This document shows positions 5,757 to 48,695 of a stretch of 64,000 bases of DNA, piece after piece. Position numbers and translations under genes: made by a program. Under the pieces are notes generated by a model. The model was not told the origin of the DNA, did not search any database, and was given only the letters and a program-made list of their open reading frames with translations. Numbering within the stretch: the first letter of the stretch is position 1; each line of letters begins with the position of its first letter. Location: the NCBI GenBank assembly GCA_018971045.1, contig JAGWVF010000001.1, positions 75,480 through 139,479 on the forward strand. The letters run 5' to 3'. The DNA is from Patescibacteria group bacterium. Lineage in GTDB: Bacteria > Patescibacteriota > Minisyncoccia > Phycocordibacterales > Phycocordibacteraceae.

Positions 5757-5758
5757 CC

Positions 5759-6976
5759 ATGCTTTTCCGCGTCATCATCCGCAAAGAAGGCCTTCCCGAC
5801 GAAACGCGCACGGTCGAGGCGCCGACCCGTTTCGCCGTATACGATCAGGTGCGCGGCGAAGGCGGCGTTGTCCTCTCGATCAAGGAGCGCACAGGCTTCG
5901 GCCGAATGGTGCTTTCCCGCCTCAATATAACGTTCGGCAGCGGCATCAAGCGGCAGGAAATCATCCGCTTCGCGCGCAATCTCTCCGCAATGATCGTCGC
6001 CGGCCTCTCGATCTCCCGCGCGCTCAGCGTCATCGAGCGGCAATCGAGCAATCCCCGAATGAAGGCCGTGGCTACCGGCCTCTCCGAATCGATTAAAAAA
6101 GGTTCTTCATTTAATGAAGCCTTGGCGCTCTATCCGCGCGTCTTTCCCGAGATCTTCGTGGCGATGGCGCGCGCCGGCGAGGAATCGGGATCGCTCTCGG
6201 AATCTCTGAACGTCGTCGCCCTTCAGATGGGGCGATCCGAAGAGCTGTCGCGGAAGATCCGCGGCGCGATGATCTATCCCTCGATCGTCATTATCGGCGT
6301 TCTCATTGTCGCGATTCTGATGCTCATCTTCGTCGTACCGACGCTCACGAATACCTTTACCTCGCTCGGCGTGCAGGTTCCGCTCGCGACGCGCATTATC
6401 GTGGCGATGTCCGATTTCTTGGTGAATAACGCCGTGCTTATCGCGCCTGTTCTCATTCTTCTCGCCGGCGTCGGCGTATCGTTCGCGCGTTCGCGCATCG
6501 GCGGGAAGCTCTTGCTTCTCGGCTCGCTTCACCTGCCCGTTATCGGCGAACTTATCCGGGAGACCTACACCGCGCGCGCCGCCCGTACGCTCTCCTCGCT
6601 CCTCGTCGCCGGCGTGCCCGTCTTGAACGCGCTCGCGATTACGAAGAGCGTCGTACACGCCGAAGTATTCGCAAATGTCGTTAGCGAAGCCGAAGAGCAT
6701 GTGCGCAAAGGCGACTTGCTCTCGAAGGCGTTCTCCGAACATACCGGACTCTATCCGATACTGATGAGCGATATGCTCGCGGTAGGGGAGGAGACCGGTA
6801 AAGTCGCCGAGATGTTGAAGCAGATCGCCGAATTCTACGAAGATACCGTATCGGAGAAAACCAAAGATCTCTCGACCATCATCGAACCGGTATTGATGCT
6901 CATCATCGGCGCCTTCGTCGGCGTTTTCGCGGTCGCGATGATCGCGCCGATTTATCAGCTCTCCTCGGCTATATGA
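5759..6976 (+). CDS. pilC: type IV pilus inner-membrane platform protein PilC / GspF family
   Basis: 405 aa, two T2SSF repeats, polytopic; directly downstream of pilB. Confidence 0.9.
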   Translation: MLFRVIIRKEGLPDETRTVEAPTRFAVYDQVRGEGGVVLSIKERTGFGRMVLSRLNITFGSGIKRQEIIRFARNLSAMIVAGLSISRALSVIERQSSNPRMKAVATGLSESIKKGSSFNEALALYPRVFPEIFVAMARAGEESGSLSESLNVVALQMGRSEELSRKIRGAMIYPSIVIIGVLIVAILMLIFVVPTLTNTFTSLGVQVPLATRIIVAMSDFLVNNAVLIAPVLILLAGVGVSFARSRIGGKLLLLGSLHLPVIGELIRETYTARAARTLSSLLVAGVPVLNALAITKSVVHAEVFANVVSEAEEHVRKGDLLSKAFSEHTGLYPILMSDMLAVGEETGKVAEMLKQIAEFYEDTVSEKTKDLSTIIEPVLMLIIGAFVGVFAVAMIAPIYQLSSAI

Positions 6977-8676: not shown

Positions 8677-9263
8677 ACACTTCTCGACCCAACGGATTTA
8701 CTCTCGTCGAAGCCCTTGTGGTCGTCTCTCTCACGGCCATTATGTCAATGGCGATTGCGTCGCTTATAGTAATGTTTTATAGAACATCGGGATTCACTCT
8801 TGAGAACACGAAAGCGATTAATATCGCTCGCCAAGGCGTCGAACAAGCTGTGCGCGACATCCGCGAAGCCACGTATGGGAACGATGGCTCGTATTTAATA
8901 ACCTCGGCGGGAACGTCGACTATCGTTATGTATTCTCAAGCTGACGCCGATGCTCAAGTGGAGCGCGTAACGTACACGCTCTCAAACGGGACGCTGTATC
9001 GCTCCACTGCTGAGCCAAGCGGAAACCCTCTCTCGTACACAAATCCAACGTACTCTACAACAACAGTATCCCAATCAGTTACGAACGGAACATCGACTCC
9101 CTTATTTCAATACTATGACACGACAAGTACTGAAATATTTCCCCCCCTTAATGTTACTTCCATTTCGAGTGTTAAAATAACGCTTATTATCGACATCAAC
9201 ACAAATGCGACCCCGCTCCCATTCACCCTCACGGGCTGGGCACACCTGCGTAATCTTCCATGA
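8673..9263 (+). CDS. prepilin-type N-terminal cleavage/methylation domain protein (pilin/pseudopilin)
   Basis: Internal start MNTSRPNGFTLVEALVVVSLTAIMSMAIASL: canonical G|FTLVE prepilin motif; ATGA overlap with upstream gene. Confidence 0.7.
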   Translation: MNTSRPNGFTLVEALVVVSLTAIMSMAIASLIVMFYRTSGFTLENTKAINIARQGVEQAVRDIREATYGNDGSYLITSAGTSTIVMYSQADADAQVERVTYTLSNGTLYRSTAEPSGNPLSYTNPTYSTTTVSQSVTNGTSTPLFQYYDTTSTEIFPPLNVTSISSVKITLIIDINTNATPLPFTLTGWAHLRNLP

Positions 9264-12588: not shown

Positions 12589-12947
12589 CGCAGAGCCGCG
12601 CGAAGCTTCTCGGCATTCTCCTCAAGCGCGTGAACGTCTCCGTGCGCCTCATTGCTCGGGAAGACCCAGATGTGCGCATGCGGGACTTCATCGCCAACGA
12701 TTTTCGACAAGATCCAATCGGTCCCGAACACGCTGCGCTGTGCGACCGCGATCTTCCGCACCACCTCGAAATAGTCGCCGGCATTCGGCACGTCCCAGAC
12801 CCAGCGATAGTGCCGCTTCGGGATTACCTGCGCGTGCCCCGGAGTCTGCGGATGGATATCGAGAAAAGCCATGAAATGTTCGTCTTCATAGATCTTGTGC
12901 GCCGAAATATCGCCCGACACGATGGTGCAAAATATGCAGTCGTCCAT
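12585..12947 (-). CDS. HIT-family (histidine triad) nucleotide hydrolase
   Basis: MDDCIFCTIV...HAHIWVFP histidine triad; start moved to MDDC (upstream part of the ORF is antisense to recJ). Confidence 0.75.
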   Translation of the reverse strand: MDDCIFCTIVSGDISAHKIYEDEHFMAFLDIHPQTPGHAQVIPKRHYRWVWDVPNAGDYFEVVRKIAVAQRSVFGTDWILSKIVGDEVPHAHIWVFPSNEAHGDVHALEENAEKLRAALR

Positions 12948-12990
12948 AAACACAGCATACCTTATTCGATTCCTGCTACAATCCTCACAC

Positions 12991-14715
12991 ATGTTCCCGC
13001 TCCATGACCCGCCCTCCGAGACGATTCGCGCTGAACTCGCGGCGTATGACGATCTCACCGCCGCGCTCCTTGCGCGGCGCGGCATCGAGACGAAAGATGC
13101 CGCCGAGAGATTTCTCTCGCCTTCGTATGACCTCCATCTGCATGATCCGCTTCTCATGACCGATATGCCGAAGGCGGCGGAGCGGCTCGCGCGCGCGATT
13201 TCCGCAGGAGAAAAGATTGCGGTGTGGAGCGACTATGACTGCGACGGCATTCCAGGCGGCGTTCTTCTCCATGACTTTCTGAAGAAATGCGGCGCGGATT
13301 TCGAAAACTACATTCCGCATCGCCACGACGAAGGGTACGGGATGAACGTACCGGGCGTAGAAAAGCTTGCGAAAAACGGCGTGTCTCTCATCGTTACGGT
13401 GGATTCTGGCATTACGGATGTCGAACCAATCGCGCGCGCGAACGCGCTTGGCATGCAGGTAATTGTCACCGATCATCATCTGCCCGGCGCGGCGCTGCCG
13501 GATGCGTTCGCGATAGTGAATCCGAACGCCCGTGATGACGAGCGGTATCCGTTCCGCTCGCTCTGCGGATCGGGCGTCGCGTGGAAGCTCGTCTGCGCGA
13601 CGCTCGCGACCGCCCCCGCTCTCCGCGAGAGCATACCGCTCGGTTGGGAGAAGTGGCTTCTCGACATGGTCGGACTCGCGACCATCGCAGACATGGTTCC
13701 GCTTCTTGACGAGAATCGCGTGCTCGCGGCGTACGGACTTCTCGTGATGCGCAAGTCGCCGCGAGTAGGTCTGCAAAAACTGTGCCGCGGGATGCGCGTC
13801 GAACAGAGAACCATTACCGAAGATGATGTCGGCTTTATGATCGCGCCGCGGATTAACGCGGCGAGCCGGATCGGATCGGCTCGGGACGCCTTTGATCTTT
13901 TCACGACTTCTGACGAGGGCACTGCCGATCTTCTCGCGAAGAAACTCGAGAAGGCGAACCGCGCGCGCAAGGCTGAAGCAGGCGCCATCACGCGTGCGGT
14001 GCACGCGCGTCTCACAGAGCGCGGCGAGATGCGAAGCGTGATCGCGATTGGCGATCCGGAGTGGCGGCCTGCGCTTCTCGGACTCGTCGCGAACACGATC
14101 GCCGACGAATACGAGCGGCCTGTTTTCCTTTGGGGGAGAGAGGGGAACAATCGTCTGAAGGGATCGGTGCGCAGCGGCGGCTCGGTACACGCGCTTGAAC
14201 TCATGCGCGGCGCCGAAAAGGTATTTGAGGACTTCGGCGGGCACGCGGCGGCCGGCGGTTTCACCGTTCTTGATACCGAAATATTTTATTTGGAAGACCA
14301 TTTGGTTGCGGCATACGATCGTCTGGCGACCGAAGGAACTCTCGCCGACGATCTCTCGACGCGCGCCGATATGCTCGTAACGCCGGAAGACATTACCGAT
14401 TCATTTTTACGGCGTATCGAAAAGCTCGCTCCGTTCGGCCAAATGAATCCGAAGCCGGTGTTCTTGCTCCGTGAGGTGATAGCGAGAGAGATTACACGTT
14501 TCGGAAAATCCGAAGAACATTTAAAGATGAGAATCGCATCGGCGGACGGACGCGCGCTTGATGCGGTCGCCTTCTTCGTCAAAGGCGCGATCGCGCGCGC
14601 CGCCGGCGCACTCACCCGGGGCAATCGTGTTCACGTTCTCGCGCATCTCGAGCGCGACGCCTTTTCTCGCGGCAACCCGGTACGATTACGGTTGCTCAAT
14701 CTGAAAGGTGTATAG
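12991..14715 (+). CDS. recJ: single-stranded-DNA-specific exonuclease RecJ
   Basis: DHH motifs (DYDCDGI, VIVTDHHLPG), DHHA1 region; start moved to MFPLHDPP. Confidence 0.85.
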   Translation: MFPLHDPPSETIRAELAAYDDLTAALLARRGIETKDAAERFLSPSYDLHLHDPLLMTDMPKAAERLARAISAGEKIAVWSDYDCDGIPGGVLLHDFLKKCGADFENYIPHRHDEGYGMNVPGVEKLAKNGVSLIVTVDSGITDVEPIARANALGMQVIVTDHHLPGAALPDAFAIVNPNARDDERYPFRSLCGSGVAWKLVCATLATAPALRESIPLGWEKWLLDMVGLATIADMVPLLDENRVLAAYGLLVMRKSPRVGLQKLCRGMRVEQRTITEDDVGFMIAPRINAASRIGSARDAFDLFTTSDEGTADLLAKKLEKANRARKAEAGAITRAVHARLTERGEMRSVIAIGDPEWRPALLGLVANTIADEYERPVFLWGREGNNRLKGSVRSGGSVHALELMRGAEKVFEDFGGHAAAGGFTVLDTEIFYLEDHLVAAYDRLATEGTLADDLSTRADMLVTPEDITDSFLRRIEKLAPFGQMNPKPVFLLREVIAREITRFGKSEEHLKMRIASADGRALDAVAFFVKGAIARAAGALTRGNRVHVLAHLERDAFSRGNPVRLRLLNLKGV

Positions 14716-15142
14716 TACCGCTATGCATTTCACGATTCACGCCGATGGCGGTTCCCGGGGGAACCCCGGACCGAGCGGCGCGGGCGCGATGATCCGCAAC
14801 GGCCTCGGCAATTCGATCGGATCCGTCTCACAGTACCTGGGCATCCGCACCAATAACTTCGCCGAATATGAAGCGGTCATTCTCGCATTTCACGCGCTCG
14901 CTCGTCTCGTGCCGGAAGACCGGCGCGGCAAGGCGAGCGTTGAAGTCAAAATGGACAGCGAACTCGTCGTAAAACAAATGAACGGCCTTTATAAAGTGAA
15001 GCATCCCGTGCTGAAAGATCAGCGAGCGCGTCTCGTGCGTGCCGCCGCCGGCTTCAAATCGGTTATCTTCACTCATGTTCCGCGTGCGCAAAACTCCGAC
15101 GCCGACGCTCTCGCAAATGAAGCGATGGATCGGGGCGCATGA
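14708..15142 (+). CDS. rnhA: ribonuclease HI
   Basis: IHADGGSRGNPGPSG, AEYEAVILAF, HVPRAQNSDADALAN. Confidence 0.8.
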   Translation: MYSTAMHFTIHADGGSRGNPGPSGAGAMIRNGLGNSIGSVSQYLGIRTNNFAEYEAVILAFHALARLVPEDRRGKASVEVKMDSELVVKQMNGLYKVKHPVLKDQRARLVRAAAGFKSVIFTHVPRAQNSDADALANEAMDRGA

Positions 15143-16629
15143 ACGCGCTCATTTCTCTTGTCGCCGGATTCGCGTTTGGCATTTTCACGCGATCATTGCT
15201 TTTTGCGAGCGGGTGGCCGATACTTTTCGTCCTCCTCCTCGCGGCGCTCATTGGCGCCGCGAATGTTCTACGGCCGCGGCGCGCGTATGCGCTCGGCGTT
15301 TTATTTTTTATATTCTGCGCGCTCGGGATGCTGCGCGCGATGACGGCCGACACACCGCCGTCGAAAACCTTCATGGGCGACCTGCGCCACCGCGTCGCCT
15401 ACGACGGCATCGTCGCGGGCGATCCTGACGTGCGCGAGAAGAATCAGCGCATCCCGCTCGTGATCGAAAAGGAGGGAGAGCGGGTCGGCGCGCTCGCGGT
15501 GATGCCGCTTGCTACGCGCGTCGCGGTCGGCGATCGCGTGCGCGTGTATGGGTCGCTCTTTGTTCCCATGGCATTTGAAACTGACAACGGCCGCACGTTT
15601 CGCTATGACAAATATCTGCAAGCGAAGGGGGAACGATTCTTAATCGAGTTCGGATCAATCACCGCGATCGCGCCGGCGCCATGGTACTCGGCGAGCGCCG
15701 CGCTCGCGCGCATTAAGCACGCCCTCCTCGACGGACTCGGTGCGGCGCTCCCTCAGCCCGATGCGGCGCTTGCGGGCGGTATCGTCATCGGCGGAAAGGT
15801 TGGGTTGAGCGCCGAATTACAGGACGCCTTCACTCGATCCGGATTGGTGCAAATCATCGTACTCTCGGGCTACAACGTCATGATCGTCGCTGAGTGGGTG
15901 ATGGCCTTCCTCGCCGCTCTGCGGTTGCCGCGCCGACTGCAGTACGTTGCCGGCGGGGCGGCGCTTCTTCTCTTCGTCGGCATCGCGGGTATCACGTCTA
16001 CGGCGGTGCGCGCGGCGATTATGGCGATCATCGCGCTCTACGCGCGCGCGAGTGGCAAGACGTATGCCGCGAGCCGCGCGCTTCTGGTCGCCGTATTTCT
16101 CATGCTTGCGTGGAATCCGCTTACGCTTTGTTTCGACCCCGGCTTCGATCTTTCGGTCGCGGCGACCGCGGGCGTTATCTGGCTCTCGCCGATAATTGAA
16201 AAGGCTCTGCGCGTCAAGTACGCGTCCTTGAAAAACGCGATCGCCACCACGCTCGCGGCGCAGACGAGCGTTCTGCCGCTTCTTCTCTATATGAGCGGAC
16301 TATTATCGTTTGTCGCGCTCCCCGCGAACCTGCTCGTAAATGCCGTCGTGCCGCTCGCGATGGCGGGAGCGGCCGTCGCGGGAGTGATCGGAATGCTTTT
16401 CGGCGCCGTTGCGCCGCTTCCGGTGCAAATCATCGGTCTGCCGACGCTCGCGCTCACGCGCTACATCATCTTCATCGCAACGAAAAGCGCGGCGCTCCCG
16501 TACGCCGCGCTCACGCTTGAACGGTTTCCTTTCGTGTTCGTCGTGATTGCTTATGCCGCGCTGATCGCATTCGCGAAACGTTTCTCGACAACCGACCAGT
16601 TCACGTTTTCGAAAAACGCATCGACATAA
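15139..16629 (+). CDS. comEC: DNA internalization competence protein ComEC/Rec2 (membrane channel domain only)
   Basis: Polytopic membrane protein with competence-domain signature GLVQIIVLSGYNVMIV; ATGA overlap with rnhA. Confidence 0.75.
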   Translation: MNALISLVAGFAFGIFTRSLLFASGWPILFVLLLAALIGAANVLRPRRAYALGVLFFIFCALGMLRAMTADTPPSKTFMGDLRHRVAYDGIVAGDPDVREKNQRIPLVIEKEGERVGALAVMPLATRVAVGDRVRVYGSLFVPMAFETDNGRTFRYDKYLQAKGERFLIEFGSITAIAPAPWYSASAALARIKHALLDGLGAALPQPDAALAGGIVIGGKVGLSAELQDAFTRSGLVQIIVLSGYNVMIVAEWVMAFLAALRLPRRLQYVAGGAALLLFVGIAGITSTAVRAAIMAIIALYARASGKTYAASRALLVAVFLMLAWNPLTLCFDPGFDLSVAATAGVIWLSPIIEKALRVKYASLKNAIATTLAAQTSVLPLLLYMSGLLSFVALPANLLVNAVVPLAMAGAAVAGVIGMLFGAVAPLPVQIIGLPTLALTRYIIFIATKSAALPYAALTLERFPFVFVVIAYAALIAFAKRFSTTDQFTFSKNAST

Positions 16630-17209: not shown

Positions 17210-17452
17210 CTAGATCACTCCGGCTTTCTTAAGAGCGGCATAGGCGCCGTTCTTTTTGATGGTCTTGAGGCCTTTCATCGAGACATCCACGATGACGGTT
17301 TTATTCAGTTCGGGAACGTAGATGCGGCGCTTCTGGAGATTGGCCTTGCGGCGAACCTTGCCGGTGGGGTTAAATTGCGTCGCACGGACGCGATTGCTGT
17401 ACCGCCCGCCGATTTGCGTGCTTTTGCCGGTAATGTCGCAGGCGCGTGCCAT
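17210..17452 (-). CDS. rpmB: 50S ribosomal protein L28
   Basis: MARACDITGKSTQIGGRYSNRV...NLQKRRIYVPELNKTVIVDVSMKGLKTI matches L28; start moved to MARACD (upstream ORF portion is spurious). Confidence 0.85.
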   Translation of the reverse strand: MARACDITGKSTQIGGRYSNRVRATQFNPTGKVRRKANLQKRRIYVPELNKTVIVDVSMKGLKTIKKNGAYAALKKAGVI

Positions 17453-17491
17453 AGTCGTCTCATGGTAACATACCGAAGTAATTCGGCAACC

Positions 17492-18127
17492 ATGATCACC
17501 CTTCTCTCGTTCGTCATTCTTATCGTCTCGATCATCGCCCACGAAGTAGCTCACGGCTATGCGGCCGACTCTTTGGGCGACCCGACTCCGAGGATCGCCG
17601 GCCGCCTGACCCTCAACCCGCTTCCGCATATCGATCCTGCGGGGTCGATCCTCATTCCGGCGCTTCTTCTGTTTACTGGCTCGCCCATCTTCTTCGGTTG
17701 GGCCAAGCCGGTGCCGTACAATCCGTACAATTTGAGCAATAAACGCTGGGGCGAAGCCTTGGTCGCGATCGCCGGGAGCGCGACCAACCTCCTTATTGCG
17801 ATTATCTTCGGATTTCTCGCGCACTATGGCGCCGCGATCGGATTCGACGCGACCGCGCTTTCTTTCGCGGCGACGATTTCTTTCGTCAACTTATTCCTCG
17901 GCCTTTTTAACATGATTCCGTTCCCTCCGCTCGACGGCTTCACCGCGCTGCGCGCCGCGCTCCCGTGGAATCTCTCGGCGGGAATGGGCCGTTTCGAGCA
18001 TCGTGTCCGCGGCGCGGGCATCCTTTCTCTGTTGCTGTTTCTCTTTCTCTTTTCCGCTTTTCTTTCGGGACCGTTCTTTCATTTCGTTGCGTGGATCTAC
18101 GGACTGCTCGTTCCTGGCGGGGGATAA
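17492..18127 (+). CDS. site-2 protease family zinc metalloprotease (peptidase M50)
   Basis: HEVAHG (HExxH) in first TM, several further TMs, LDG motif; start moved to MITLLSF. Confidence 0.7.
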   Translation: MITLLSFVILIVSIIAHEVAHGYAADSLGDPTPRIAGRLTLNPLPHIDPAGSILIPALLLFTGSPIFFGWAKPVPYNPYNLSNKRWGEALVAIAGSATNLLIAIIFGFLAHYGAAIGFDATALSFAATISFVNLFLGLFNMIPFPPLDGFTALRAALPWNLSAGMGRFEHRVRGAGILSLLLFLFLFSAFLSGPFFHFVAWIYGLLVPGGG

Positions 18128-18129: not shown

Positions 18130-18603
18130 ATGCCGCGAAGTGTTACACTGGAGAAAATGGAGTACCAGGTACCGCAATTTATTGAGGCTGAAGATAAAAT
18201 CGTCGGACCGCTGACGTTTAAACAATTCTTGTATCTCGGCGGCGCGGCCGGAATCTGCGTTATTTCTTTCTTGTACCTGAATATTCTTCTTGCCGTCCTT
18301 ATTGCATTGCCCGTGATTGGACTCGCCGCGGCTCTTGCGTTCTACAAAGTGAACGGAAAGCCCTTTATCGAAGTTCTTGAGGCAGGTTTTAATTATTTCA
18401 TCGGCGCAAAGCTTTTCCTCTGGCGGCGCAATGAGGAAGCCCAGAAGCGGAAGCAGGCCGCCGCGGCAACCGCGGCGGCCGAGGCGGCAACCGCGGCGGC
18501 AGCTCTGCCGCGGAATACCCCGCGGCTTACGAGAGGCAGACTCTCCGAGCTCGCTTGGTCTCTCGACGTGCGAGACTCGGCGAGCAATGAGAATCGATCA
18601 TAA
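18130..18603 (+). CDS. VirB3/PrgI-like small membrane protein of T4SS-like locus
   Basis: 158 aa, long hydrophobic hairpin (FLYLGGAAGICVISFLYLNILLAVLIALPVIGLAAALAFY), directly upstream of VirB4 pieces; low-complexity Ala-rich tail. Confidence 0.45.
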   Translation: MPRSVTLEKMEYQVPQFIEAEDKIVGPLTFKQFLYLGGAAGICVISFLYLNILLAVLIALPVIGLAAALAFYKVNGKPFIEVLEAGFNYFIGAKLFLWRRNEEAQKRKQAAAATAAAEAATAAAALPRNTPRLTRGRLSELAWSLDVRDSASNENRS

Positions 18604-18604
18604 T

Positions 18605-19243
18605 ATGGCAACCGCTCCGCAAGCCAATCCCACACAGCAGTTCGTTCCGGTCAAAGAAATTCGGAACGGCGTCGTAATTCTCAAAGACGGCAGTTACCGG
18701 GGCATTTTGATCTGTTCATCGATAAACTTCGGTCTGAAATCGGAAGAAGAGCAACATGCGATCACGATTGGGTTTCAGAATTTCCTCAATACGCTCGATT
18801 TCTCGATTCAGATCGTGGTGAACTCGCGCCGCATGGATCTGCGGCCGTATCTCGCGCTTCTCGAAGAAAAAGCTTCGGAACAGAAAACCGAGCTTATGCG
18901 TATCCAGCTCCGCGAATACATCGAGTTCGTGCGATCCTTCGCCGATCAAGCGAACATCATGACGAAGTCGTTTTATGTCGTGGTACCGTACGCTCCCCAT
19001 CTCTCGGCCCGCGCCGCGACGGCCGGACTTCTCCATCGCGACACGGCATCGGAAAAGAAGACGGCGGATATGTCATTTGAGACTGATCGCGTACAACTTG
19101 AACAGCGTCTCACGCTCGTCGCCGGCGGACTCGCCGGCACCGGCGTGCGCGCCGTCCCTTTGGGAACCGAGGAGGTGATCGAGCTTTTGTACCGCTCGTT
19201 TAATCCCGGAGAGCTTGAAAACCCTATCCGTCTCGAAGCTTGA
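18605..19243 (+). CDS. VirB4-family N-terminal domain protein (upstream piece of a split VirB4)
   Basis: 212 aa; together with the next ORF reconstitutes VirB4 length and puts the Walker A at a canonical position; separated from the next ORF by 1 nt. Confidence 0.45.
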   Translation: MATAPQANPTQQFVPVKEIRNGVVILKDGSYRGILICSSINFGLKSEEEQHAITIGFQNFLNTLDFSIQIVVNSRRMDLRPYLALLEEKASEQKTELMRIQLREYIEFVRSFADQANIMTKSFYVVVPYAPHLSARAATAGLLHRDTASEKKTADMSFETDRVQLEQRLTLVAGGLAGTGVRAVPLGTEEVIELLYRSFNPGELENPIRLEA

Positions 19244-19244
19244 T

Positions 19245-21068
19245 ATGTCTCTCCTCGACTTTCTCAACAAGAAGAAGGAAATGGAATTGCCGGAAATCGT
19301 ACCGGTGCTCCCGCACGATATCTACAAGCAAGGCGCGCTTGACCTCGTCGACACGATCGCTCCTACGGCGCTCAAGATCGGCTCGCGCGAACTCGAGCTC
19401 GGAGAGAAGTTTGTCCGCGCATTCTATACCATTTCGTATCCGCGATTTCTCGCCGACAGCTGGTTCGCGCCCGTGATCAACCTCGACAAAGTGCTCGATG
19501 TATCGATCTTTATCCACCCTATTGAAACCGAACAGGCGCTCCGCGCCTTTCAGAAGAAGGTCGCTGAATACCAGAGCCAGATCAGCGAACGGGAAACGAA
19601 AGGGCTCGTGCGTGATCCGCTACTCGATACGGGCTATCAGGATCTGGAGCGGCTCCGCGACAGCCTTCAACAAGCGCAGGAAAAGCTTTTCGACGTCGGC
19701 CTCTATCTTGCGCTCTATGGCGATACCAAAGAGGAGATTGATAAAACAGAAGGGGATATCCGCGGCATCCTCGACGCGAAGCTCGTTTATACCAAGCCGG
19801 CGCTCTTCCAGCAGGAGCAGGGATTCAAATCGTGCCTGCCGCTCGGTACCGATGAGTTGCTCGTCAATTCAAAACTCAATTCCTCGCCGCTTTCTTCCAT
19901 TTTCCCGTTCGTCTCCTTCGATCTCACGAGCGATCGCGGCATTCTCTACGGCATCAACCGCCATAACTCCTCGCTGATCCTCTTTGATCGCTTCTCGCTT
20001 GAGAACTATAACTCCGTCATCTTCGCGAAGTCCGGCTCGGGCAAGAGCTACTCAACGAAGCTCGAGATCTTGCGTTCCCTGATGTTCGGCACGGACGTGA
20101 TCGTGATCGACCCGGAACGCGAATATGAACAGCTTGCCGAAGCGACCGGCGGCCGCTCTTTCCATATTTCACTCTCATCAGAAAACCACATCAATCCGTT
20201 CGATCTCCCGCCCGTCAAAGAAGACGAGGATCCCCGGGATATCTTGCGCTCCAATATCATCGCGCTTGTCGGCCTCTTCCGCATCATGCTTTCCGGCCTC
20301 TCGCCCGAGGAAGACGCGATTATTGACCGCGCGATCAGCGAGACCTACGCGCTCAAGGATATCACCGGCGATGCCGACTTCACCGGCGCTGAACCGCCTC
20401 TTCTTTCCGACTTCGAACAGGTGCTCTCTGGCATGGAGGGAAGCGAGTCGCTTATCGAGCGATTGTCGAAGTATACTCGCGGAACCTGGGCCGGCTTTCT
20501 CAACCAGCCGACCAATATCGATCTTAAACAGCAGTTTGCCGTTTTCTCGGTGCGTGATATGGAGGACGAGCTCAAGCCGGTGGCGATGTACATCATCACG
20601 CACTATATTTGGAACGCAATTCGCCACGATCTCAAGAAGCGCCTGCTTATTATTGACGAGGCGTGGTGGATGATGCGCAGCGAGGACACGGCCTCATTCC
20701 TCTACTCTTTGGCGAAGCGCGGCCGCAAATACTATCTCGGCGTATGCACGATCACCCAGGACGTCGAGGACTTCCTCAAGAGCCCGTATGGCCGCCCCAT
20801 TCTGACGAACTCCTCGCTCCAGTTGTTGTTGAAACAATCGCCGACAACGATCGACGTGCTCCAGCAAACCTTCAATCTCACCGACGAGGAGAAATACCTT
20901 CTGCTTGAGGCCGGGGTAGGGGAGGGGCTCTTCTTCGCGGGACTGAAGCATGTCGCGATCAAGATCGTCGCGAGCTACACCGAGGATCAGATCATCACCT
21001 CGGACCCGTCACAGCTCTTGGCGATCAAACAGGAAAAAGAGCGTTATAATGCCGCTGATCGGAAATAA
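19245..21068 (+). CDS. VirB4/TrbE/CagE-family type IV secretion ATPase (C-terminal ATPase portion)
   Basis: Walker A FAKSGSGKSYST, Walker B LLIIDEAWWMM, CagE_TrbE_VirB-like core; start set to the ATG at 19245 (the ORF finder used TTG at 19215). Confidence 0.8.
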   Translation: MSLLDFLNKKKEMELPEIVPVLPHDIYKQGALDLVDTIAPTALKIGSRELELGEKFVRAFYTISYPRFLADSWFAPVINLDKVLDVSIFIHPIETEQALRAFQKKVAEYQSQISERETKGLVRDPLLDTGYQDLERLRDSLQQAQEKLFDVGLYLALYGDTKEEIDKTEGDIRGILDAKLVYTKPALFQQEQGFKSCLPLGTDELLVNSKLNSSPLSSIFPFVSFDLTSDRGILYGINRHNSSLILFDRFSLENYNSVIFAKSGSGKSYSTKLEILRSLMFGTDVIVIDPEREYEQLAEATGGRSFHISLSSENHINPFDLPPVKEDEDPRDILRSNIIALVGLFRIMLSGLSPEEDAIIDRAISETYALKDITGDADFTGAEPPLLSDFEQVLSGMEGSESLIERLSKYTRGTWAGFLNQPTNIDLKQQFAVFSVRDMEDELKPVAMYIITHYIWNAIRHDLKKRLLIIDEAWWMMRSEDTASFLYSLAKRGRKYYLGVCTITQDVEDFLKSPYGRPILTNSSLQLLLKQSPTTIDVLQQTFNLTDEEKYLLLEAGVGEGLFFAGLKHVAIKIVASYTEDQIITSDPSQLLAIKQEKERYNAADRK

Positions 21069-22080
21069 TCCCGCGCCGCCGAAAGTAATGACCTGGACGA
21101 AAGCGTTGCCGGCTCTTTTGGTGGCCGGTATCTTTGACGCGCTTCGCCTCTTCTTTGAGATGTTCTGGTTCTTCGGGCCGGCGCTCGGCGCGGCGCTTTG
21201 CACCGCCGCGGTAAATGACTATGCGGGCACCACGATCGCCGCAACCGGAGGACAAGTCGTAGCCGGACTGTGCACCGCGGCCGCCGCGGCGGCCGGCGTC
21301 GCCTTCGTCGGCCCCTTCGAGATGTTCGGATACCTTATGTCGGATGCGTTCGCTCTTGCCGGATTCTTGATGCTTATTATTCTTCTGTTCGTCACCAATG
21401 CGCGCCTCTTCAAGGCGAATAAAGCCGGCTTGCTCTGGCTTGCGGGGGGGTTGGGAATCGGATCGATTCCGTTTATCGGAGCCATTCCTTCATATAGCAT
21501 CATTCTTTTCAGACTATACGCCCATCAGATCAGGACTGAGAAAGCAGAACTTAAAAAATATATCGAGGAGCGCGCGGCGGCTCAGCTAAAGGAACGCCGC
21601 GAGCAAGAGGCCGTGCTTATTGAACAACGCGCCGCGCAGCAAGAATATGAGGAGGAACAGTATCGACAGGAAGAGGAGGATCGGTATCAACAAGAAGAGG
21701 ATCAGCGGGCCGCGCGCGAGCGCGAGGCACCCGAGGGAAACATCGGCGCAGGGGAGTCTGGAGAGCCGTCAATCGATACTGAGGCGTCGGCGATTCAATT
21801 TGAAACACTTAAAGACGCGCTCTCCGAGCTTAATGCGAAGATGAATCGCACGCCGGAAGAAAACGGACGGCTTAACCGGGCGAGAGAAATCATGAAGAGC
21901 GTGTCGATTAATCCGTATGAGGTCCGCGATCCGGTCTTTCTCGCCGCCTTCGAGCGGGCGCACGCCGGACAGAAAGTGTATGACGGGAGTTATGAAAATC
22001 GTAATGGATTCAAGTTCCTCAATCTGCGGCCGGAACGGCAAGGCTCTCCGAACAATGCCCCGTACAACCCACAAGGGTAG
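21049..22080 (+). CDS. membrane protein with Gln/Glu-rich coiled-coil tail (T4SS-like locus component)
   Basis: Four Gly/Ala-rich TM helices then EQRAAQQEYEEEQYRQEEEDRYQQEE coiled coil; overlaps VirB4 stop. Confidence 0.45.
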   Translation: MPLIGNNPAPPKVMTWTKALPALLVAGIFDALRLFFEMFWFFGPALGAALCTAAVNDYAGTTIAATGGQVVAGLCTAAAAAAGVAFVGPFEMFGYLMSDAFALAGFLMLIILLFVTNARLFKANKAGLLWLAGGLGIGSIPFIGAIPSYSIILFRLYAHQIRTEKAELKKYIEERAAAQLKERREQEAVLIEQRAAQQEYEEEQYRQEEEDRYQQEEDQRAAREREAPEGNIGAGESGEPSIDTEASAIQFETLKDALSELNAKMNRTPEENGRLNRAREIMKSVSINPYEVRDPVFLAAFERAHAGQKVYDGSYENRNGFKFLNLRPERQGSPNNAPYNPQG

Positions 22081-22126
22081 CAAAAAACTGCATAGCCACC
22101 CGCCCGATACGCGATATACTAAGACC

Positions 22127-23122
22127 ATGCGCCTTTGTCTTCTCGCCCTTGGTGCCGTCGCTCTCCTCCCGCTCACGGCGTCTGCGCAGCTTATGGGAAC
22201 CGCGAATTCGGTCGGGCAGACGCCCTTCACGATTACCGTCAACCCTCAGTCTCCGGTACCCTTCGGCTCCGCTTCGCTCTCTTTTCTCTCCGACACGATG
22301 CTCCTCGCAAACGCGACGATGACCGTCTCGGTAAACGGTAAAAAGACTTATGCCGGGAGCGTCCAGACTACCGCCGTCCCGCTCGGAAAGGCGGGGGTGC
22401 CCGTAGTTGTCGCTGTAACCATCACATCAAACGGCGCCGGATATTCCCAGTCAGTAACGATTCAGCCGCAGGATGTTTCGCTTATCGCCGAACCCGTCTC
22501 CTCGGCGCCGCCTCTCTACCCCGGCAAGCCGCAGGTGCCGCTTGATGGGAGCGTGCGCGTTGTCGCGATCGCGAATCTGAAAAACGCCGCGGGCAAGACC
22601 ATTGACCCCGCGAACCTCTCATATACTTGGACTGTCGACGGTACCATGATCGCGAACTCCTCCGGCATCGGAAAACAGGTCCTTCTTGTCGCCTCTCCGC
22701 TCCAATACCGCAACCGCGATGTCTCGGTAGCGGTTATGAGTCAGGACGGAACGCTCAGCGGCGGGGCCGCCATCACCCTTATCGCTGAAAAGCCCACTAT
22801 ACAGATCTATGAAAACGACCCCCTCCTCGGTATTCGCTTCGACCATGCCCTTGGAACGTCCTACACGATAGCCGGCGCGGAATCCACGCTCTATGCCGCT
22901 CCCTTCTCGTTCTCGATATCGAGCAGTCCGCCGTCGCTCCAGTGGTTCTTGAATGATGCGGCAGCGCAGACCGGCAATTCAATCACTCTGCGCCCGGCAG
23001 GATCGGGGTCGGGAAACGCATCTCTCTCCTTAACCGCTTCGGCAGGAGATTATAATACGGCGAGTGCGAGCATCTCGCTCCTGTTCGGCTCTTCCGGCAG
23101 AACTAATCTCTTTGGCTTATGA
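22127..23122 (+). CDS. secreted protein (signal peptide) of T4SS-like locus
   Basis: MRLCLLALGAVALLPLTASAQ signal peptide; Ser/Thr-rich beta-type protein. Confidence 0.45.
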   Translation: MRLCLLALGAVALLPLTASAQLMGTANSVGQTPFTITVNPQSPVPFGSASLSFLSDTMLLANATMTVSVNGKKTYAGSVQTTAVPLGKAGVPVVVAVTITSNGAGYSQSVTIQPQDVSLIAEPVSSAPPLYPGKPQVPLDGSVRVVAIANLKNAAGKTIDPANLSYTWTVDGTMIANSSGIGKQVLLVASPLQYRNRDVSVAVMSQDGTLSGGAAITLIAEKPTIQIYENDPLLGIRFDHALGTSYTIAGAESTLYAAPFSFSISSSPPSLQWFLNDAAAQTGNSITLRPAGSGSGNASLSLTASAGDYNTASASISLLFGSSGRTNLFGL

Positions 23123-24096
23123 AAAAACTGACTCTTGGTGTCGCGTTTCTCATATTCGCAATGCTCTGCGCGGCTCCCGTCGTCTTTGCCGAAAGTTCTC
23201 CCTCTCCAGCCGCGCCCGGCGCTCCGAGCGGCTTCGTCGCGCTCGCGCCGATACTCGGGTTGACCGACGCCAATTCGACCAGCGTCATCAACTCGGGATC
23301 GTTCGCAAATTTTTTCAATAATCTCTATAAATATCTCATCGGCCTCGCGGCGATACTCGCCATCATCGAGATCATCTGGGGCGGACTCGAGATCTCGACC
23401 CAGGATTCGGTAAGCAAGCAGAGCAATGGTAAAGAACGCATCACGCAGGCGATTATCGGTCTTATCCTCGTCCTCTCCCCCGTCCTCGTCTTCTCTATCA
23501 TCAACCCCAGTATTTTGAATCTATCGCTTGGCATTGATAAGCTCGATACAGTCACTCCCGCGAGTAATAATAGCGACGGGTCAACTGGAAATCAGCCATC
23601 AGTCATTGATCCTGCCAGTGGGTGCAACGTTGTTGGCTCGAATGGGCTCTTTAAAACAGCGTCCTGCCCAAACCAGGCTGCGGCGAATAGCTTTAATTGT
23701 AATGATCCAGCTCTGTCTCAAGTCGTTCCTGCCTGTAAATCAATTGATCCAATCACACACGCGTGCCTTGATCAAACAATTACTATTTATTGTGCCGGGG
23801 GGAAGAGTCCAACACTAACTTATTATATCTACCTTGGTAAACTCTCATTATCGACTCCATCGGTGGCAAAGCAAACGATTATTTCTAGCCAGAAGGCGAC
23901 ATTTGATTCGTTTATAGCCAGTTGCAAAGCTGCTGGTGGGGTTCCGAGTGATCCTCCTTCGACAGTATTTACTGGCATGTCCACAATCCCATGTACAGCC
24001 GATATGAATATTCCTCCCATCAATGTGTCCATATATGGAACGAATGGTGAGGCGCGGTGTCTCACAAGTAAGTTGACTTGTAACGCGCCTTCATAA
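23119..24096 (+). CDS. VirB2/TrbC-like pilin domain fused to a Cys-rich C-terminal domain
   Basis: Signal peptide; two hydrophobic helices (LIGLAAILAIIEIIWGGLEI, AIIGLILVLSPVLVFSII) resembling T4SS pilins; ~10 Cys in the C-terminal 170 aa. Confidence 0.4.
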   Translation: MKKLTLGVAFLIFAMLCAAPVVFAESSPSPAAPGAPSGFVALAPILGLTDANSTSVINSGSFANFFNNLYKYLIGLAAILAIIEIIWGGLEISTQDSVSKQSNGKERITQAIIGLILVLSPVLVFSIINPSILNLSLGIDKLDTVTPASNNSDGSTGNQPSVIDPASGCNVVGSNGLFKTASCPNQAAANSFNCNDPALSQVVPACKSIDPITHACLDQTITIYCAGGKSPTLTYYIYLGKLSLSTPSVAKQTIISSQKATFDSFIASCKAAGGVPSDPPSTVFTGMSTIPCTADMNIPPINVSIYGTNGEARCLTSKLTCNAPS

Positions 24097-24097
24097 T

Positions 24098-25282
24098 ATG
24101 CGGCGCACCCTTACCATCCTTGCAGTACTGATAGTGATCCTCGGGATTGTTCTTGCCGTGTACTTCTTCTACTTCCGCACCACCGCCACGGTTACCGTCT
24201 CGCCGACCGGCGGCACGCTCCCTTCTGCCGGCCAGACGACTTCCTCCAGCACCGCTGTCATACCTGCTGTTACAAATAGCCCGGTCGCGGTCTCGCCGCG
24301 ACTCGTGAAGATCGCGTCCGGTCCGATCGTACCCGGCATGGTCATTGTCGACACTCCGGCGGCTTCGGCGAGTTCCTCTCCCGAGACGATAGTGAGCTAT
24401 ATCGAGCGCCAAAGCGGCAATATCTACACCTACAGCGTCCAGAGCCAGACGACGACCCGAACGAGTAATAAGACGGTGCCGGGCATCCAATCCGCTTCGT
24501 GGCTCCCCGACGGCTCGCTCGCCTTTGTCCGCTATCTCACCGGTACCGATTTCAGTACGGTCAACACCTACGGACTTCCTTCAAACGGATCAAACGGATT
24601 CTTCTTAAACCAGGATCTCGCCGGCCTCGCCGTCTCTTCAAGCTCGGTATTGATGCTCGCGTCGGGCGTGAATGGTTCGGTCGGCCTGCTCGCCCATACG
24701 GACGGCACGAGCTCAAAGTCAGTTTTTACGTCTCCGCTCTCTTCGCTCCGAGTCTCCTTCGCGGGGAGGGGGTATCTCGCTTTCACCAAGCCCTCGGCGC
24801 TTCTTGACGGGGACGCCTTCCTTGTCGACAGCTCCGGGCGCTTCTCCCGCATCGCCGGCCCCGCAAGCGGATTGGTCGCGCTCGCCAGTCCTTCAGGAAA
24901 ATGGGTGCTCGTGAGTTCATCCCATGACGGAACGATGCAAATGCAGCTTATTAACACTGCAACCGGTGAAGCGCTCCCGCTCCCGGTCGCGACGATTGCC
25001 GATAAATGCGTCTGGACGGCTAATGAGTCAGCAATCTATTGCGGCATACCGATGAATCCTCCGAGCGCCTCCTATCCCGATGACTGGTATCAAGGAGTCG
25101 TGTCGTTCTCTGATCGCCTATGGAAGATTGACGTGGCCGGCCGCTATGCCGCGCTCGTTCTCGACTTTTCGAAAGAAACCAAAACATCGCTTGACGCTAC
25201 CGCACTCACCCTCGATAGCGGGAATACGACGATCGCCTTTATTAATAAAAATGACGGTTCGCTCTGGAGTTTCTCTCTATAA
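24098..25282 (+). CDS. N-terminally anchored extracytoplasmic protein (beta-rich) of T4SS-like locus
   Basis: N-terminal TM (ILAVLIVILGIVLAVYFFYF), Ser/Thr-rich; function unknown. Confidence 0.4.
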   Translation: MRRTLTILAVLIVILGIVLAVYFFYFRTTATVTVSPTGGTLPSAGQTTSSSTAVIPAVTNSPVAVSPRLVKIASGPIVPGMVIVDTPAASASSSPETIVSYIERQSGNIYTYSVQSQTTTRTSNKTVPGIQSASWLPDGSLAFVRYLTGTDFSTVNTYGLPSNGSNGFFLNQDLAGLAVSSSSVLMLASGVNGSVGLLAHTDGTSSKSVFTSPLSSLRVSFAGRGYLAFTKPSALLDGDAFLVDSSGRFSRIAGPASGLVALASPSGKWVLVSSSHDGTMQMQLINTATGEALPLPVATIADKCVWTANESAIYCGIPMNPPSASYPDDWYQGVVSFSDRLWKIDVAGRYAALVLDFSKETKTSLDATALTLDSGNTTIAFINKNDGSLWSFSL

Positions 25283-26008
25283 GGCTTCGTCTGCTTTAAG
25301 AGTCCGGCGCACATGCCATTCCTGAAATGAACCGGCGATATTGGTCGTGACGAAATACAGCGCGACGGCTCCGGAAGTGGTGTAGGAAATGGTTCCGATA
25401 AGAAAGGGAAATATGTATTTTAATTGCATCCCCATCACGCGCTGAAAATCGTTCTGCATTCCTTTTCCTTCCGCAGGCTTCATCGTTCCGGAGAGGGCGA
25501 GATGCGCCTGAAAATACTGAGTAATGCCGGCGAGCACCGCAAGCACCGTGCTTTTCCCCGTCACTGAAATGAGGCCGATGAACTGGAGCGACACTGCGTG
25601 CGGCAGAGGGGTAAAGGAGTAGAGCCGCGCCGAATCAAGGGTGGAGAACGGCTCATATCGAAAGACCCAGTAAAGCGCGAGGAGGACGGGGATCTGGATA
25701 AAAACAGTGGCGATGCTCGCGAAGGGGTTTACCTTCGCCTCCCGGTAGAGCGCGAGCGTTTCGAGCGCTTCCTTCTCTTTGTCGCCTTTATGCCTCTCTT
25801 TCAATTCTTTTATTCTCGGCTCGAGTTCTTTCATCGCCCGCTGGGTGCGTGCCGCCGAAAGGGAGAACGGGAGGAGTACGAGCCGGATAATGATCGTAAC
25901 GAGGATGACCGCGATCCCGACATCCCCGCCGGGAACGATCGCGATAAGCGCCACGAGCGCGTTGTAGATCGGATTATAAAAAGCGGCGTGGAAGAAAGCT
26001 GAAATCAT
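25277..26008 (-). CDS. yidC: membrane protein insertase YidC (short form)
   Basis: 243 aa, conserved YidC/Oxa1 core TMs; classic rpmH-rnpA-yidC arrangement. Confidence 0.85.
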   Translation of the reverse strand: MISAFFHAAFYNPIYNALVALIAIVPGGDVGIAVILVTIIIRLVLLPFSLSAARTQRAMKELEPRIKELKERHKGDKEKEALETLALYREAKVNPFASIATVFIQIPVLLALYWVFRYEPFSTLDSARLYSFTPLPHAVSLQFIGLISVTGKSTVLAVLAGITQYFQAHLALSGTMKPAEGKGMQNDFQRVMGMQLKYIFPFLIGTISYTTSGAVALYFVTTNIAGSFQEWHVRRTLKADEAL

Positions 26009-26041: not shown

Positions 26042-26358
26042 CTACTTACTCATCGCCCGTCCGAGAAGCGCGGCGAGATCGGAACGTAAATGCAGTGAAT
26101 CAAGCCTAAACGCCGACGGTTTCGGAAAAATGATGAGAGATTTCGGAAGAAGAGGAAAGGATTGGAGCGCTCCGATGACTTGGCGCTTCATTCGGTGGCG
26201 CGCTACCGAGAGGCGGGCGATTTTCTTTGGAACAACAACGGCGTATCCGCTCGTTTTTTCCGGAATGACGGCCGTAAAATACTCAGAAGAGATCCTCCGT
26301 CCGTTCCTTAAGGCGGAAGGGAAAAGGGTCCGGCTAATTCGTTTTCGGCGCGGGAACA
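26042..26358 (-). CDS. rnpA: ribonuclease P protein component
   Basis: LRNGRRISSEYFTAV...KKIARLSVARHRMKRQ RnpA signature; start trimmed to a GTG overlapping the rpmH stop, because the annotated ORF N-terminus overlaps rpmH in another frame. Confidence 0.75.
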
Positions 26359-26359
26359 C

Positions 26360-26498
26360 GCTAGGGAGTAAGGCGTTTACGCCCGACGCGCCGACGCGCC
26401 TGGACGATTTTACGGCCTGAAGGCGTGGCACTGCGTGAGAGGAACCCGTGCGTTTTAGCGCGTTTCCGCTTCTTTGGTTGATAGGTTCGTTTGGCCAT
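26360..26498 (-). CDS. rpmH: 50S ribosomal protein L34
   Basis: Minus-strand translation [45 protein letters not shown]: canonical L34 (absent from the ORF track because it is <60 aa). Confidence 0.85.
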
Positions 26499-26590
26499 GA
26501 AGCTCTGAAAATTTAGATTATACACAGGATAGTACCAGTTTTTCCGCGAAATGCCACTCGTGCCTTGTTTCTCATATCGGCGTATACTCC
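26499..26590. promoter_or_regulatory. dnaA upstream region with DnaA box
   Basis: TTATACACA (fits TTATNCACA) at ~26517-26525 between rpmH and dnaA. Confidence 0.45.
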
Positions 26591-27955
26591 ATGGTACTTA
26601 TGGATAAGAGAAATCCGAAAGAACTGTGGGAGTACGTTTTGACGCAAGTGGAGCTCTCTATTTCATCAGCTAATTTCAATACATGGTTCCGCAATAGTTT
26701 CATCGTGAGGATCGGGGACGACGGTGTCTTGTACGTCGGCGTTCCCAGCCAATTCTTCAAAGATTGGTATTTAAAAAAATTTCACACCCTTCTCTTGAAG
26801 ATCGTCCGCGATATATCGTATGAGTTTCGCAATATTGACTACCTTATTGTGAAAGACGAACGCCGAAAGGCGCAATCGAGAGAAATAAAAAATCCCCGCG
26901 GAGCGATTGAATTGCCGCTTGATGAATTCTATATCAACAAAAGCGATAATTTGAATCCACGATATACCTTCGATACGTTCGTTATCGGCGCCTTTAATAA
27001 TCTTGCCTATGCGGCGTCGCAAGCGGTGCTCGCTCGCCCCGGTATCACCTATAACCCGCTTTTCATTTACGGCGATACCGGGCGGGGGAAGACCCATTTG
27101 ATACAGGCGATTGGGAATCAATTTAAGAAACAGTATCCCGGACGGAAGGTCTTTTATCTCACTTCGGAGAAATTCACGATTGATTATACGGATTCCGTGC
27201 AGGCGGGAACCGCAAACCGCTTCAAAGATAAATACCGCCAATTCGATCTTCTCATTATGGATGACGTTCAATTCCTCTCAAAAAAACAGAAGACGGAGGA
27301 GGAGCTCTTTCATCTCTTCAATACGCTTCACGACACGAATAAACAAATTATTTTTTCATCGGATCGCGCGCCAGCCGCTATTCCCGACATCGCGGAACGG
27401 TTGAAGGGCCGTTTGGCGAGCGGTATGACGATTGATATCGGAGAACCCGATCCTGAATCGCGTATGGCGATCGTGCGGAAGAAAGCCGCCCTGCACGGCA
27501 TAATTCTCTCCGACGAAGTCATTGAATACGTTTCAACGACGATAAGCGGCTCAATCCGCGAGCTGGAAGGAATGGTGAATAACATTATCTGTCACGCCCA
27601 AGTAAAAGGGGCGGCTCCTGATATCGCCGAAGTTCGCCAATCACTGCGCTCTTTCACCCGCCCACAGAAAAGTATTTCAGTGAAGAACGTCGTTGATAAA
27701 GTCGCGTCGTTTTACGGGATTGATGAAGAGAGTATTTACGAGAAAACACGAAGAAGGGAAGTGGTGCGGCCGCGCCAGGTGATCATGTATATTCTGCGCG
27801 AAGATTTTAACATTTCCTATCCGACTATCGGAACAAAGCTCGGGGGCCGCGATCACACGACAGTTATCCACTCTTGTGAGAAGATAAAGCGTGAAGTAGT
27901 TGTGGATACCGAGCTCGCAAAGGAGATTCAGAATATTCGCACCCTTCTCGTATGA
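26591..27955 (+). CDS. dnaA: chromosomal replication initiator DnaA
   Basis: AAA+ Walker [11 protein letters not shown], Walker [12 protein letters not shown]-terminal DNA-binding domain. Confidence 0.95.
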
Positions 27956-42952: not shown

Positions 42953-42986
42953 GTTCCTATACCGTACCCTTTCCAGAGGGTTTTTT

Positions 42987-43943: not shown

Positions 43944-43961
43944 ACGGGAATAGTAGCAAAT

Positions 43962-48668: not shown

Positions 48669-48695
48669 AAAAAATCATGTTTCTATCCAACGCAA

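Follow-up and report, generated by a model that had tools for sequence, protein, structure and literature searches.

The type IV secretion systems (T4SSs) of Patescibacteria have a VirB4 of a clade related to MPF-FATA, with PrgI, TrsD, and VirB2-like pilins encoded near virB4, and TrsD is the T4SS component reported as most abundant in this group (PMC12102498). Relaxases are rare in these systems, and the locus is situated near dnaA, dnaN, rnpA, and rpmH, especially in Paceibacteria (PMC12102498, Quinonero-Coronel 2025). In Southlakia epibionticum, the T4SS genes SEML1_0006-0019, including those of the pilins, were found by transposon sequencing (Tn-seq) to be essential for epibiotic growth, and the cluster is without a recognisable coupling protein or relaxase (PMC10633639, Wang 2023). 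According to a 2025 review, the T4SSs of Patescibacteria are unique among those of monoderms in being essential and possibly pilus-making (PMC12857230), and tubular structures, possibly T4SS pili, were observed at a parasite-host interface (bioRxiv 10.64898/2026.06.21.733656). Here, a locus of this kind is described from contig JAGWVF010000001.1 of a Patescibacteria group bacterium (assembly GCA_018971045.1). The stretch analysed, designated as the window, is the 64 kb from position 75,480 to 139,479 of that contig, and all coordinates are positions in the window. As a whole, the locus is ordinary for a Paceibacteria genome, and its type, its missing relaxase, and its position on the side of dnaA are already published (Wang 2023; Quinonero-Coronel 2025). 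The new part is apparently a previously undescribed cysteine-rich module at the C-terminus of its only pilin; the survey of T4SSs in Patescibacteria (PMC12102498) has no mention of a pilin extension, fusion, or Cys-rich region.

The locus covers positions 18130-25282 and consists of seven genes, A to G, all on the plus strand, which are spaced by 1-46 nt or overlap. The genes and the parts of the pilin gene are as follows:

18130-18603, plus strand: A, PrgI/VirB3-like small membrane protein of 157 amino acids (aa) (PF12666, E 3e-10, 40.9 bits against a cut-off of 27)
18605-19243, plus strand: B, TrsD-like protein of 212 aa (NF045971 positions 1-165, E 1.9e-8; NF041427 TrsD, E 5e-5; both scores under the curated cut-offs)
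19245-21068, plus strand: C, VirB4 ATPase, MPF-FATA-related, 607 aa (NF045971, CD1110-family VirB4, 372 bits against 325)
21049-22080, plus strand: D, small polytopic membrane protein (four to five hydrophobic segments by hydropathy; charged helical tail; start uncertain, 21049 or 21088)
22127-23122, plus strand: E, secreted beta-rich protein of 331 aa with a signal-like hydrophobic segment at residues 3-21
23119-24096, plus strand: F, pilin of 325 aa
23119-23529, plus strand: pilin part of F, with signal peptide (residues 1-24), short exposed N-terminus, and VirB2-like helical hairpin
23530-23604, plus strand: low-complexity S/T/G/N/P linker of F, residues 138-162
23605-24096, plus strand: C-terminal 10-cysteine alpha/beta domain of F, residues 163-325, and stop codon
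24098-25282, plus strand: G, membrane-anchored extracytoplasmic beta-propeller of 394 aa, according to its AlphaFold2 model

All seven genes of the T4SS-like set proposed for this region in an initial annotation, which was made from the sequence alone, were thus found. An operon is inferred from the gene spacing, since scans for promoters and terminators over 17.0-26.7 kb found no more of them than in shuffled sequence. At least 575 loci were matched in a genome scan with VirB4, of which the best 80, from species-level genomes, were fetched and compared. The gene order PrgI-TrsD-VirB4-(D)-E-pilin-G-yidC(minus strand)-dnaA-dnaN is repeated in most of these 80 genomes. TrsD is present in 78 loci, PrgI, upstream of TrsD/VirB4, in 76, E in 75-76, G and yidC in 62 each, and dnaA, downstream, in 59; many of the missing genes are due to contig ends. 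Both the synteny comparison and the profile searches had been proposed together with the initial annotation, and both agree with it: gene order beside dnaA is kept, and the PrgI/VirB3, VirB4, and VirB2-like assignments are upheld in Pfam and NCBIfam.

The locus resembles the T4SSs described for Patescibacteria (PMC12102498) and Southlakia (PMC10633639) in its consecutive PrgI, TrsD-like, and VirB4 genes and the PF18895 pilin encoded close to them, in having no relaxase or coupling protein nearby, and in its chromosomal position beside dnaA, dnaN, rnpA, and rpmH. In Southlakia, the locus encodes lysozymes, large VirB6-like proteins, and six pilin paralogues which are short (103-185 aa) and divergent, whereas one pilin with a large variable C-terminal module and no VirB1-like hydrolase were found here, the small polytopic D is in the place of a recognisable VirB6, and the probably Ig-like E and the anchored propeller G are additional. 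With the MPF-FATA systems of pCF10 (PrgI/PrgJ), pGO1 (TrsC/TrsD/TrsE), and CTn2 (CD1110), the locus shares a VirB4 scoring above the CD1110 cut-off and the same order of PrgI and TrsD. It differs from them in that no relaxase, coupling protein (T4CP), VirB1-like hydrolase, VirB8-like protein, or PrgB-type adhesin was found here and in not being on a mobile element. A VirB2-like pilin is present, unlike in monoderm conjugation systems (PMC12102498, PMC12857230).

Protein F is identical to NCBI protein KGM48_00555 and its relatives are labelled Kaiserbacteria, Paceibacterota, or Minisyncoccota. Its gene starts 2 kb downstream of virB4 and is the only pilin gene in the window; the related loci likewise have one pilin gene each, save one locus. 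The VirB2-like pilin of the initial annotation was confirmed by the match of residues 61-120 to PF18895 (T4SS_pilin), with 37.2 bits against a cut-off of 26.6, and by the signal peptide and two-helix hairpin; the match to PF04956, with 18.6 bits, is under the cut-off of 27.9. The single F sequence had no meaningful match in PDB. In the AlphaFold2 model, computed with 82 homologues as an alignment, and in the hydropathy profile, the hairpin consists of two helices (59-94 and 98-128) joined by a short loop which contains K/R. A disordered linker (predicted local distance difference test, pLDDT, below 50 at residues 137-156) and a confidently modelled C-terminal domain (residues 160-325, pLDDT 90-96) follow. 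Signal peptide, two hydrophobic helices, and short basic loop are the same as in the diderm VirB2/TraA/TrbC pilins of F, T, and P pili. The known pilins of this kind are small, about 70-130 residues when mature, and are not known to carry an extra globular domain. In contrast, F is 325 aa long and carries an additional folded Cys-rich domain of 165 residues without a fold match, and in this it departs from the small single-domain proteins of the VirB2/TrbC/T4SS_pilin family.

The C-terminal domain has exactly ten cysteines, at residues 169, 183, 194, 206, 216, 225, 269, 292, 314, and 321, where the initial annotation had counted about ten in the last 170 aa, and most of 120 homologues also have exactly ten in the tail. 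When the 82 full-length homologues were aligned, eight of the ten cysteines were at least 99% conserved, with mean pairwise identity of the domain only 29%; the linker is 30% identical and the pilin core (residues 59-137) 76%. No structure was matched by the domain in Foldseek at E of 0.001 or below in PDB or BFVD (best E 1.3 and 0.06, respectively), and its sequence profile had no match in PDB. Searched against 1.84 billion representative proteins, the profile found 71 clusters only. Among them, 48 were new, that is, not previous pilin homologues, and 45 of these have the pilin domain N-terminal of the match, the other three being fragments. As all non-fragment clusters checked carry the pilin domain, the C-terminal domain is known only as a fusion to this pilin. 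The extension had initially been called unusual. It has no detectable relative in fold or sequence in PDB or BFVD, but it is not peculiar to this genome, being lineage-specific, family-wide, exclusive to the pilin, and hypervariable.

The variability was surveyed in 189 pilins, taken from the syntenic genes of related loci and from database matches, and their tails were classed by coverage of a hidden Markov model (HMM) of the domain:

full domain, tail of at least 50 aa (179 such tails in total): 102
N- or C-terminal half of the domain only, tail of at least 50 aa: 11
tails of at least 50 aa without detectable similarity (54-256 aa, usually with an even number of cysteines): 66
tails below 30 aa, essentially none: 8 of the 189 pilins

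On inspection, several visibly different types of small Cys-rich module were recognized among the short tails. In a neighbour-joining tree of VirB4, full-domain and other tails interleave among genomes with VirB4 88-93% identical to that of the window. Bare pilins, with a tail of 7-28 residues, are mostly in a more distant clade with VirB4 about 75% identical. Single-linkage clustering of the tails by BLAST was uninformative; it collapsed into one big cluster, probably due to shared linker residues. An independent preprint reports that PF18895 dominates the freshwater-specific structure clusters (69 in all), which fits with many different structures being appended to this pilin.

Partial matches cover only the N-terminal half (profile positions about 1-80) or the C-terminal half (about 90-163) of the domain, for example in L034, L043, and L051 and in P0019, P0099, and P0113. 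This suggests that the 10-cysteine domain is bipartite and its sub-domains are shuffled, with some of the N-half-only cases possibly due to contig ends.

On balance, the locus can be taken as a core-chromosomal, origin-proximal, non-conjugative T4SS of Patescibacteria, here in a Paceibacteria/Kaiserbacteria-like genome, in which the C-terminal domain of the pilin is proposed to be a surface module for host recognition; this reading as a whole is judged slightly more likely than not. For the domain taken by itself, a host-recognition surface is about evenly poised between yes and no. The pattern expected of host recognition is seen in the invariant cysteine scaffold with low identity elsewhere, in swapping among sister species, and in exclusivity to the pilin. 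In the mechanism proposed, PrgI, the TrsD-like protein, and VirB4 would form a membrane-associated ATPase module, and D would probably supply the membrane channel. Pilins VirB2 and TraA are known to lose the signal peptide and to have both termini outside and the basic loop inside. By analogy, signal-peptide cleavage would give a mature F of the same topology, which VirB4, with TrsD and PrgI, would extract from the membrane and assemble. F could then polymerise into a pilus-like tube or form the outer part of a short conduit. Because both ends of the pilin would face outward in the membrane, the C-terminal domain of about 165 residues, probably closed by five disulfides and tethered by the flexible linker, would be outside the filament or on the cell surface. 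The pilin core would represent a conserved assembly scaffold, and the domain a fast-evolving exchangeable cassette matching the symbiont to the host surface. E and G could be extracytoplasmic accessory parts that span the wall or contact the host.

In some homologues (P0002, P0007, P0015, P0021, and others; alignment columns 60-110), a 4-cysteine insert is placed between the signal peptide and pilin core, and these proteins have Cys-rich modules at both exposed pilin termini. An extracytoplasmic position of both termini fits with such inserts.

Variation of the pilin in an otherwise conserved T4SS is also found in the VirB2 arrays of Bartonella, Anaplasma, and Saccharimonadia/Microgenomatia, where variation among the paralogues has been interpreted as adaptation to different host surfaces (PMC12102498). 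Unlike these arrays of several tandem genes, the present locus has a single gene, and the variation is in the appended exchangeable C-terminal module. An analogy, not homology, is found in the unrelated filament system of type IV pili, where a filament-inserting N-terminal part is likewise followed by a linker and a globular domain. The minor pilins TcpB and CofB of that system have C-terminal adhesin- or lectin-like domains and are minor tip subunits beside a separate major pilin.

Several points weigh against this reading. Polymerisation of F, disulfide bonding of the cysteines, and binding by the C-terminal domain are all inferred. No precedent is known among the solved VirB2/TraA filaments for a globular domain of about 19 kDa per subunit. 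No disulfide-forming oxidoreductase was recognized among the window open reading frames (ORFs) scanned, a short major pilin encoded beyond the 64-kb window could make F a minor or tip pilin, and an exposed domain may also evolve fast under relaxed constraint or phage or immune-type pressure instead of by host matching.

F might instead be a non-polymerising two-helix membrane protein, possibly part of the translocon, which stays in the cell membrane and displays a Cys-rich ectodomain, or it might be a minor or tip pilin with a short major pilin encoded elsewhere. The bulky domain, which would sit on each F subunit, speaks for this, as do the general lack of pili in monoderm T4SSs (PMC12857230), the arrays of several short pilins of 103-185 aa (PMC10633639) used by Saccharibacteria, and the fact that the DNA inspected is 64 kb of a 150-kb contig. 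Nevertheless, nearly all of the 80 loci have just one syntenic pilin gene, and this gene encodes a bare pilin in more distant relatives, which suggests that the core functions as the pilin; the 76% identity of the core is also as expected for an assembly interface. A non-polymerising or minor F is judged rather unlikely.

In another explanation, the C-terminal domain serves as a pro-region or a chaperone-like module, is cut off as the pilin matures, and plays no part at the surface. P-type and T-type pilins are known to undergo C-terminal processing and cyclisation, and the C-terminal trimming of RP4 TrbC offers a parallel. A gene for an M50 (site-2 protease family) intramembrane metalloprotease is present at 17375-18127 on the plus strand and ends 3 nt before the PrgI gene; a role of this protease in pilin processing is conceivable. 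This gene is upstream in the 26 closest loci but is unlinked to the locus in more distant relatives, and no TraF-like maturation peptidase was identified in the locus in Pfam or NCBIfam. Moreover, a part to be discarded is not expected to keep eight invariant cysteines while its remainder diversifies, nor to be swapped for other Cys-rich modules. A removable pro-region is therefore improbable.

The apparatus could also serve mainly to import host DNA, RNA, or nucleotides, as ComB and Ced do, with the variable domain as an incidental decoration. Patescibacteria are described in the literature as lacking nucleotide synthesis, ComEC, RecJ, and type IV pilus genes are located 1.5-14 kb upstream in the window, and a 2026 preprint links host-RNA feeding to possible T4SS-pilus tubes (bioRxiv 10.64898/2026.06.21.733656). 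The NCBIfam scan also gave weak similarity to CedB and CedD, which reflects the shared ATPase fold. In Southlakia, however, deletion of comEC abolishes competence and not viability, while the T4SS is essential (PMC12857230), and the sequence gives no indication of transport direction. Import is considered possible, if rather doubtful, as the main function; it concerns the substrate and would be compatible with an adhesin role of the pilin domain.

Host recognition by the pilin domain can be carried further, though only tentatively: the single T4SS pilin of Paceibacteria may be pilin and adhesin in one, and the swapped cassette may be the main determinant of the host to which the cell attaches and on which it feeds. 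If so, the cassette type read from a metagenome would predict the host range of uncultured Patescibacteria, and this would be the first T4SS pilus with a globular domain on every subunit. Patescibacteria represent a large share of bacterial diversity and are mostly uncultured because their hosts are not known, and among their envelope machines only the T4SS has been shown to be essential for epibiotic life. The hypervariable pilin domain, the cassettes of sister species, and the conserved unnamed partners D, E, and G provide concrete candidates for host recognition and targets for structural work.

In the ATPase module, the VirB3/PrgI-like membrane protein of the initial annotation was confirmed by PF12666 above the cut-off, and A has one strong hydrophobic segment, at residues 52-70 by hydropathy. 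The NF045971 match of VirB4 spans model positions 183-733, PF19044 is matched with E 9e-26, and the Walker A (KSGSGKS) and Walker B (LLIIDEAW) motifs are legible in the sequence. By its profile matches, B is a homologue of the VirB4 N-terminal domain encoded by a gene of its own. The initial annotation had described a VirB4 ATPase in two pieces. Two ORFs do match VirB4, but they are not a split gene. In 78 of 78 loci, TrsD-like and virB4 genes are separate ORFs, mostly 1-12 nt apart, and their relative frame takes all three values; this is thus a conserved two-gene arrangement, and a frameshift or pseudogene of virB4 was rejected. PHROGs gave nothing of use; the only match was that of residues 28-126 of the TrsD-like protein to phrog_2666 (terminase large subunit), with E 6e-7, which possibly reflects a P-loop-related N-terminal fold shared with packaging ATPases.

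The locus was described initially as next to the replication origin, and this is supported by the neighbouring genes, with the following Pfam assignments:

25277-26008, minus strand: yidC
26042-26431, minus strand: rnpA
26361-26525, minus strand: rpmH
26591-27955, plus strand: dnaA
28068-29168, plus strand: dnaN

The dnaA start is 1.3 kb downstream of the T4SS locus, the minimum of cumulative GC skew is at 24-26 kb of the window, and the segment 25693-28050 contains seven of the window's 16 DnaA-box-like matches. Together with the yidC-rnpA-rpmH and dnaA-dnaN neighbours, this places the locus beside the origin. In the fetched loci, VirB4 is 74-93% identical (80 genomes), DnaA 52-93%, and DnaN 33-82%; the most distant group has values of about 75%, 54%, and 36%, respectively. 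Judged by these identities, VirB4 is under unusually strong constraint for a secretion ATPase, at least at the level of housekeeping genes.

The T4SS operon is to the left of the inferred origin on the plus strand, and its transcription runs towards the origin and meets the leftward replication fork head-on. It is convergent with yidC, an orientation kept in most of the related loci that reach yidC and dnaA.

Gene content of the window was determined by Pfam scans of about 50 ORFs. In accordance with the initial annotation, no relaxase, T4CP, or VirB11 was identified among them, nor any match to MOB or T4CP families. The two PF00437 ATPases of the window are PilB-type, as both have the MshEN N-terminal domain, and that at 4005-5756 adjoins a PilC-like gene. 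The locus might still be a mobile element, conjugative or integrative and either intact or decayed, considering that its best VirB4 model is of the CD1110 family from conjugative transposon CTn2, that PrgI and TrsD derive from Gram-positive conjugative plasmids, and that a region resembling a phage or mobile genetic element is situated about 20 kb away. However, dozens of species share the fixed synteny on the side of dnaA, VirB4 exceeds DnaA in conservation, the locus does not differ from its flanks in GC content, and no relaxase, T4CP, or integrase was found in or beside the locus in the window ORF scans. The features of a conjugative T4SS or an integrative and conjugative element were not found in the window, synteny is fixed in most of the 80 genomes, and a conjugative element was rejected on the grounds of GC content and conserved chromosomal synteny. 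The published survey also concludes that these systems are non-conjugative (PMC12102498). A mobile origin of the present locus is very improbable, and the VirB4-centred episymbiont apparatus proposed in the initial annotation is the description that conserved synteny, gene content of the window, and literature agree on.

Three further proteins of the locus are of less certain function. D-like genes are located directly 3' of virB4 in at least 51 loci. The protein, which corresponds to the coiled-coil membrane protein of the initial annotation, has hydrophobic segments followed by an E/Q/R-rich helical stretch and a C-terminal region. The VirB6 profile search suggested there gave no match. The family has variable tails and the motifs FDxL(R/Q) and E(V/L)xPxI(N/G)xxPxxT. 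No relatives were found in Pfam (38 family members), in NCBIfam, or by profile in PDB, and the 38 homologues from databases all lack both a name and a Pfam domain. Membership of D in the VirB6, TrbL, or PrgH families was rejected, as only position and topology are suggestive and no similarity was detected in these searches; matches to a copper-storage four-helix bundle (E 0.005) look compositional. That D is a channel component or functional analogue of VirB6 is a guess from position and topology.

The secreted protein of the initial annotation corresponds to E, with its N-terminal signal-like segment, kept in nearly all loci. A profile of the E family has a weak match in 3shs, the Ig-like Hoc protein (E 5e-4), and weak matches to BiPBP_C and Cadherin-like were also found; the protein probably consists of tandem Ig-like beta-sandwich domains. 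G, initially recognized as an anchored beta-rich protein, has a transmembrane helix at residues 2-26, a disordered S/T/P linker at 27-96, and a predicted beta-propeller at 98-394 (AlphaFold2, predicted template modelling score 0.63, propeller pLDDT 75-90). Its identity across Kaiserbacteria-like genomes is 60-73%. It has no Pfam family and no sequence-profile match in PDB, and Foldseek found generic propellers only, with E about 1e-9: TolB (7mx5, E 2e-9), oligogalacturonate lyase, DCAF1, and WD40 proteins. G is not considered a TolB, because the fold match is generic and its N-terminus is a transmembrane helix with a disordered linker, not an alpha/beta domain.

Around the T4SS there are genes of type IV pili and competence, at 4005-9263, 15139-16629, and 34164-35846. 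They encode a PilB-like ATPase, a PilC-like platform, a CarboxypepD_reg-domain protein, an N_methyl prepilin-like ORF, ComEC, and a second PilB-like ATPase; the RecJ gene, at 12895-14715, is among these competence and pilus genes. A possible remnant of a prophage or mobile element is located at 42878-49640, between core genes and a biosynthetic island, and contains:

42878-42952, minus strand: tRNA-Lys
45417-46742: ParB_N and N6/N4 DNA methylase fusion
47121-48668: terminase-large-subunit-like protein
49510-49639, minus strand: LOOT RNA (70 bits against 46)

From 50100 to the end of the window at 64000, on the plus strand, there is a low-GC island (about 42-45%, compared with about 55% elsewhere) with a hybrid cluster for a nonribosomal peptide synthetase and polyketide synthase. 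It encodes an AMP-binding enzyme, a ProRS paralogue, an M15 D-Ala-D-Ala dipeptidase, a phosphopantetheinyl transferase, a protein with A-domain and PCP, and a megasynthase of 2026 aa with the domain order KS-MT-KR-ACP-C and without an AT domain. Such a cluster is unexpected in a reduced Patescibacteria genome, and it looks horizontally acquired.

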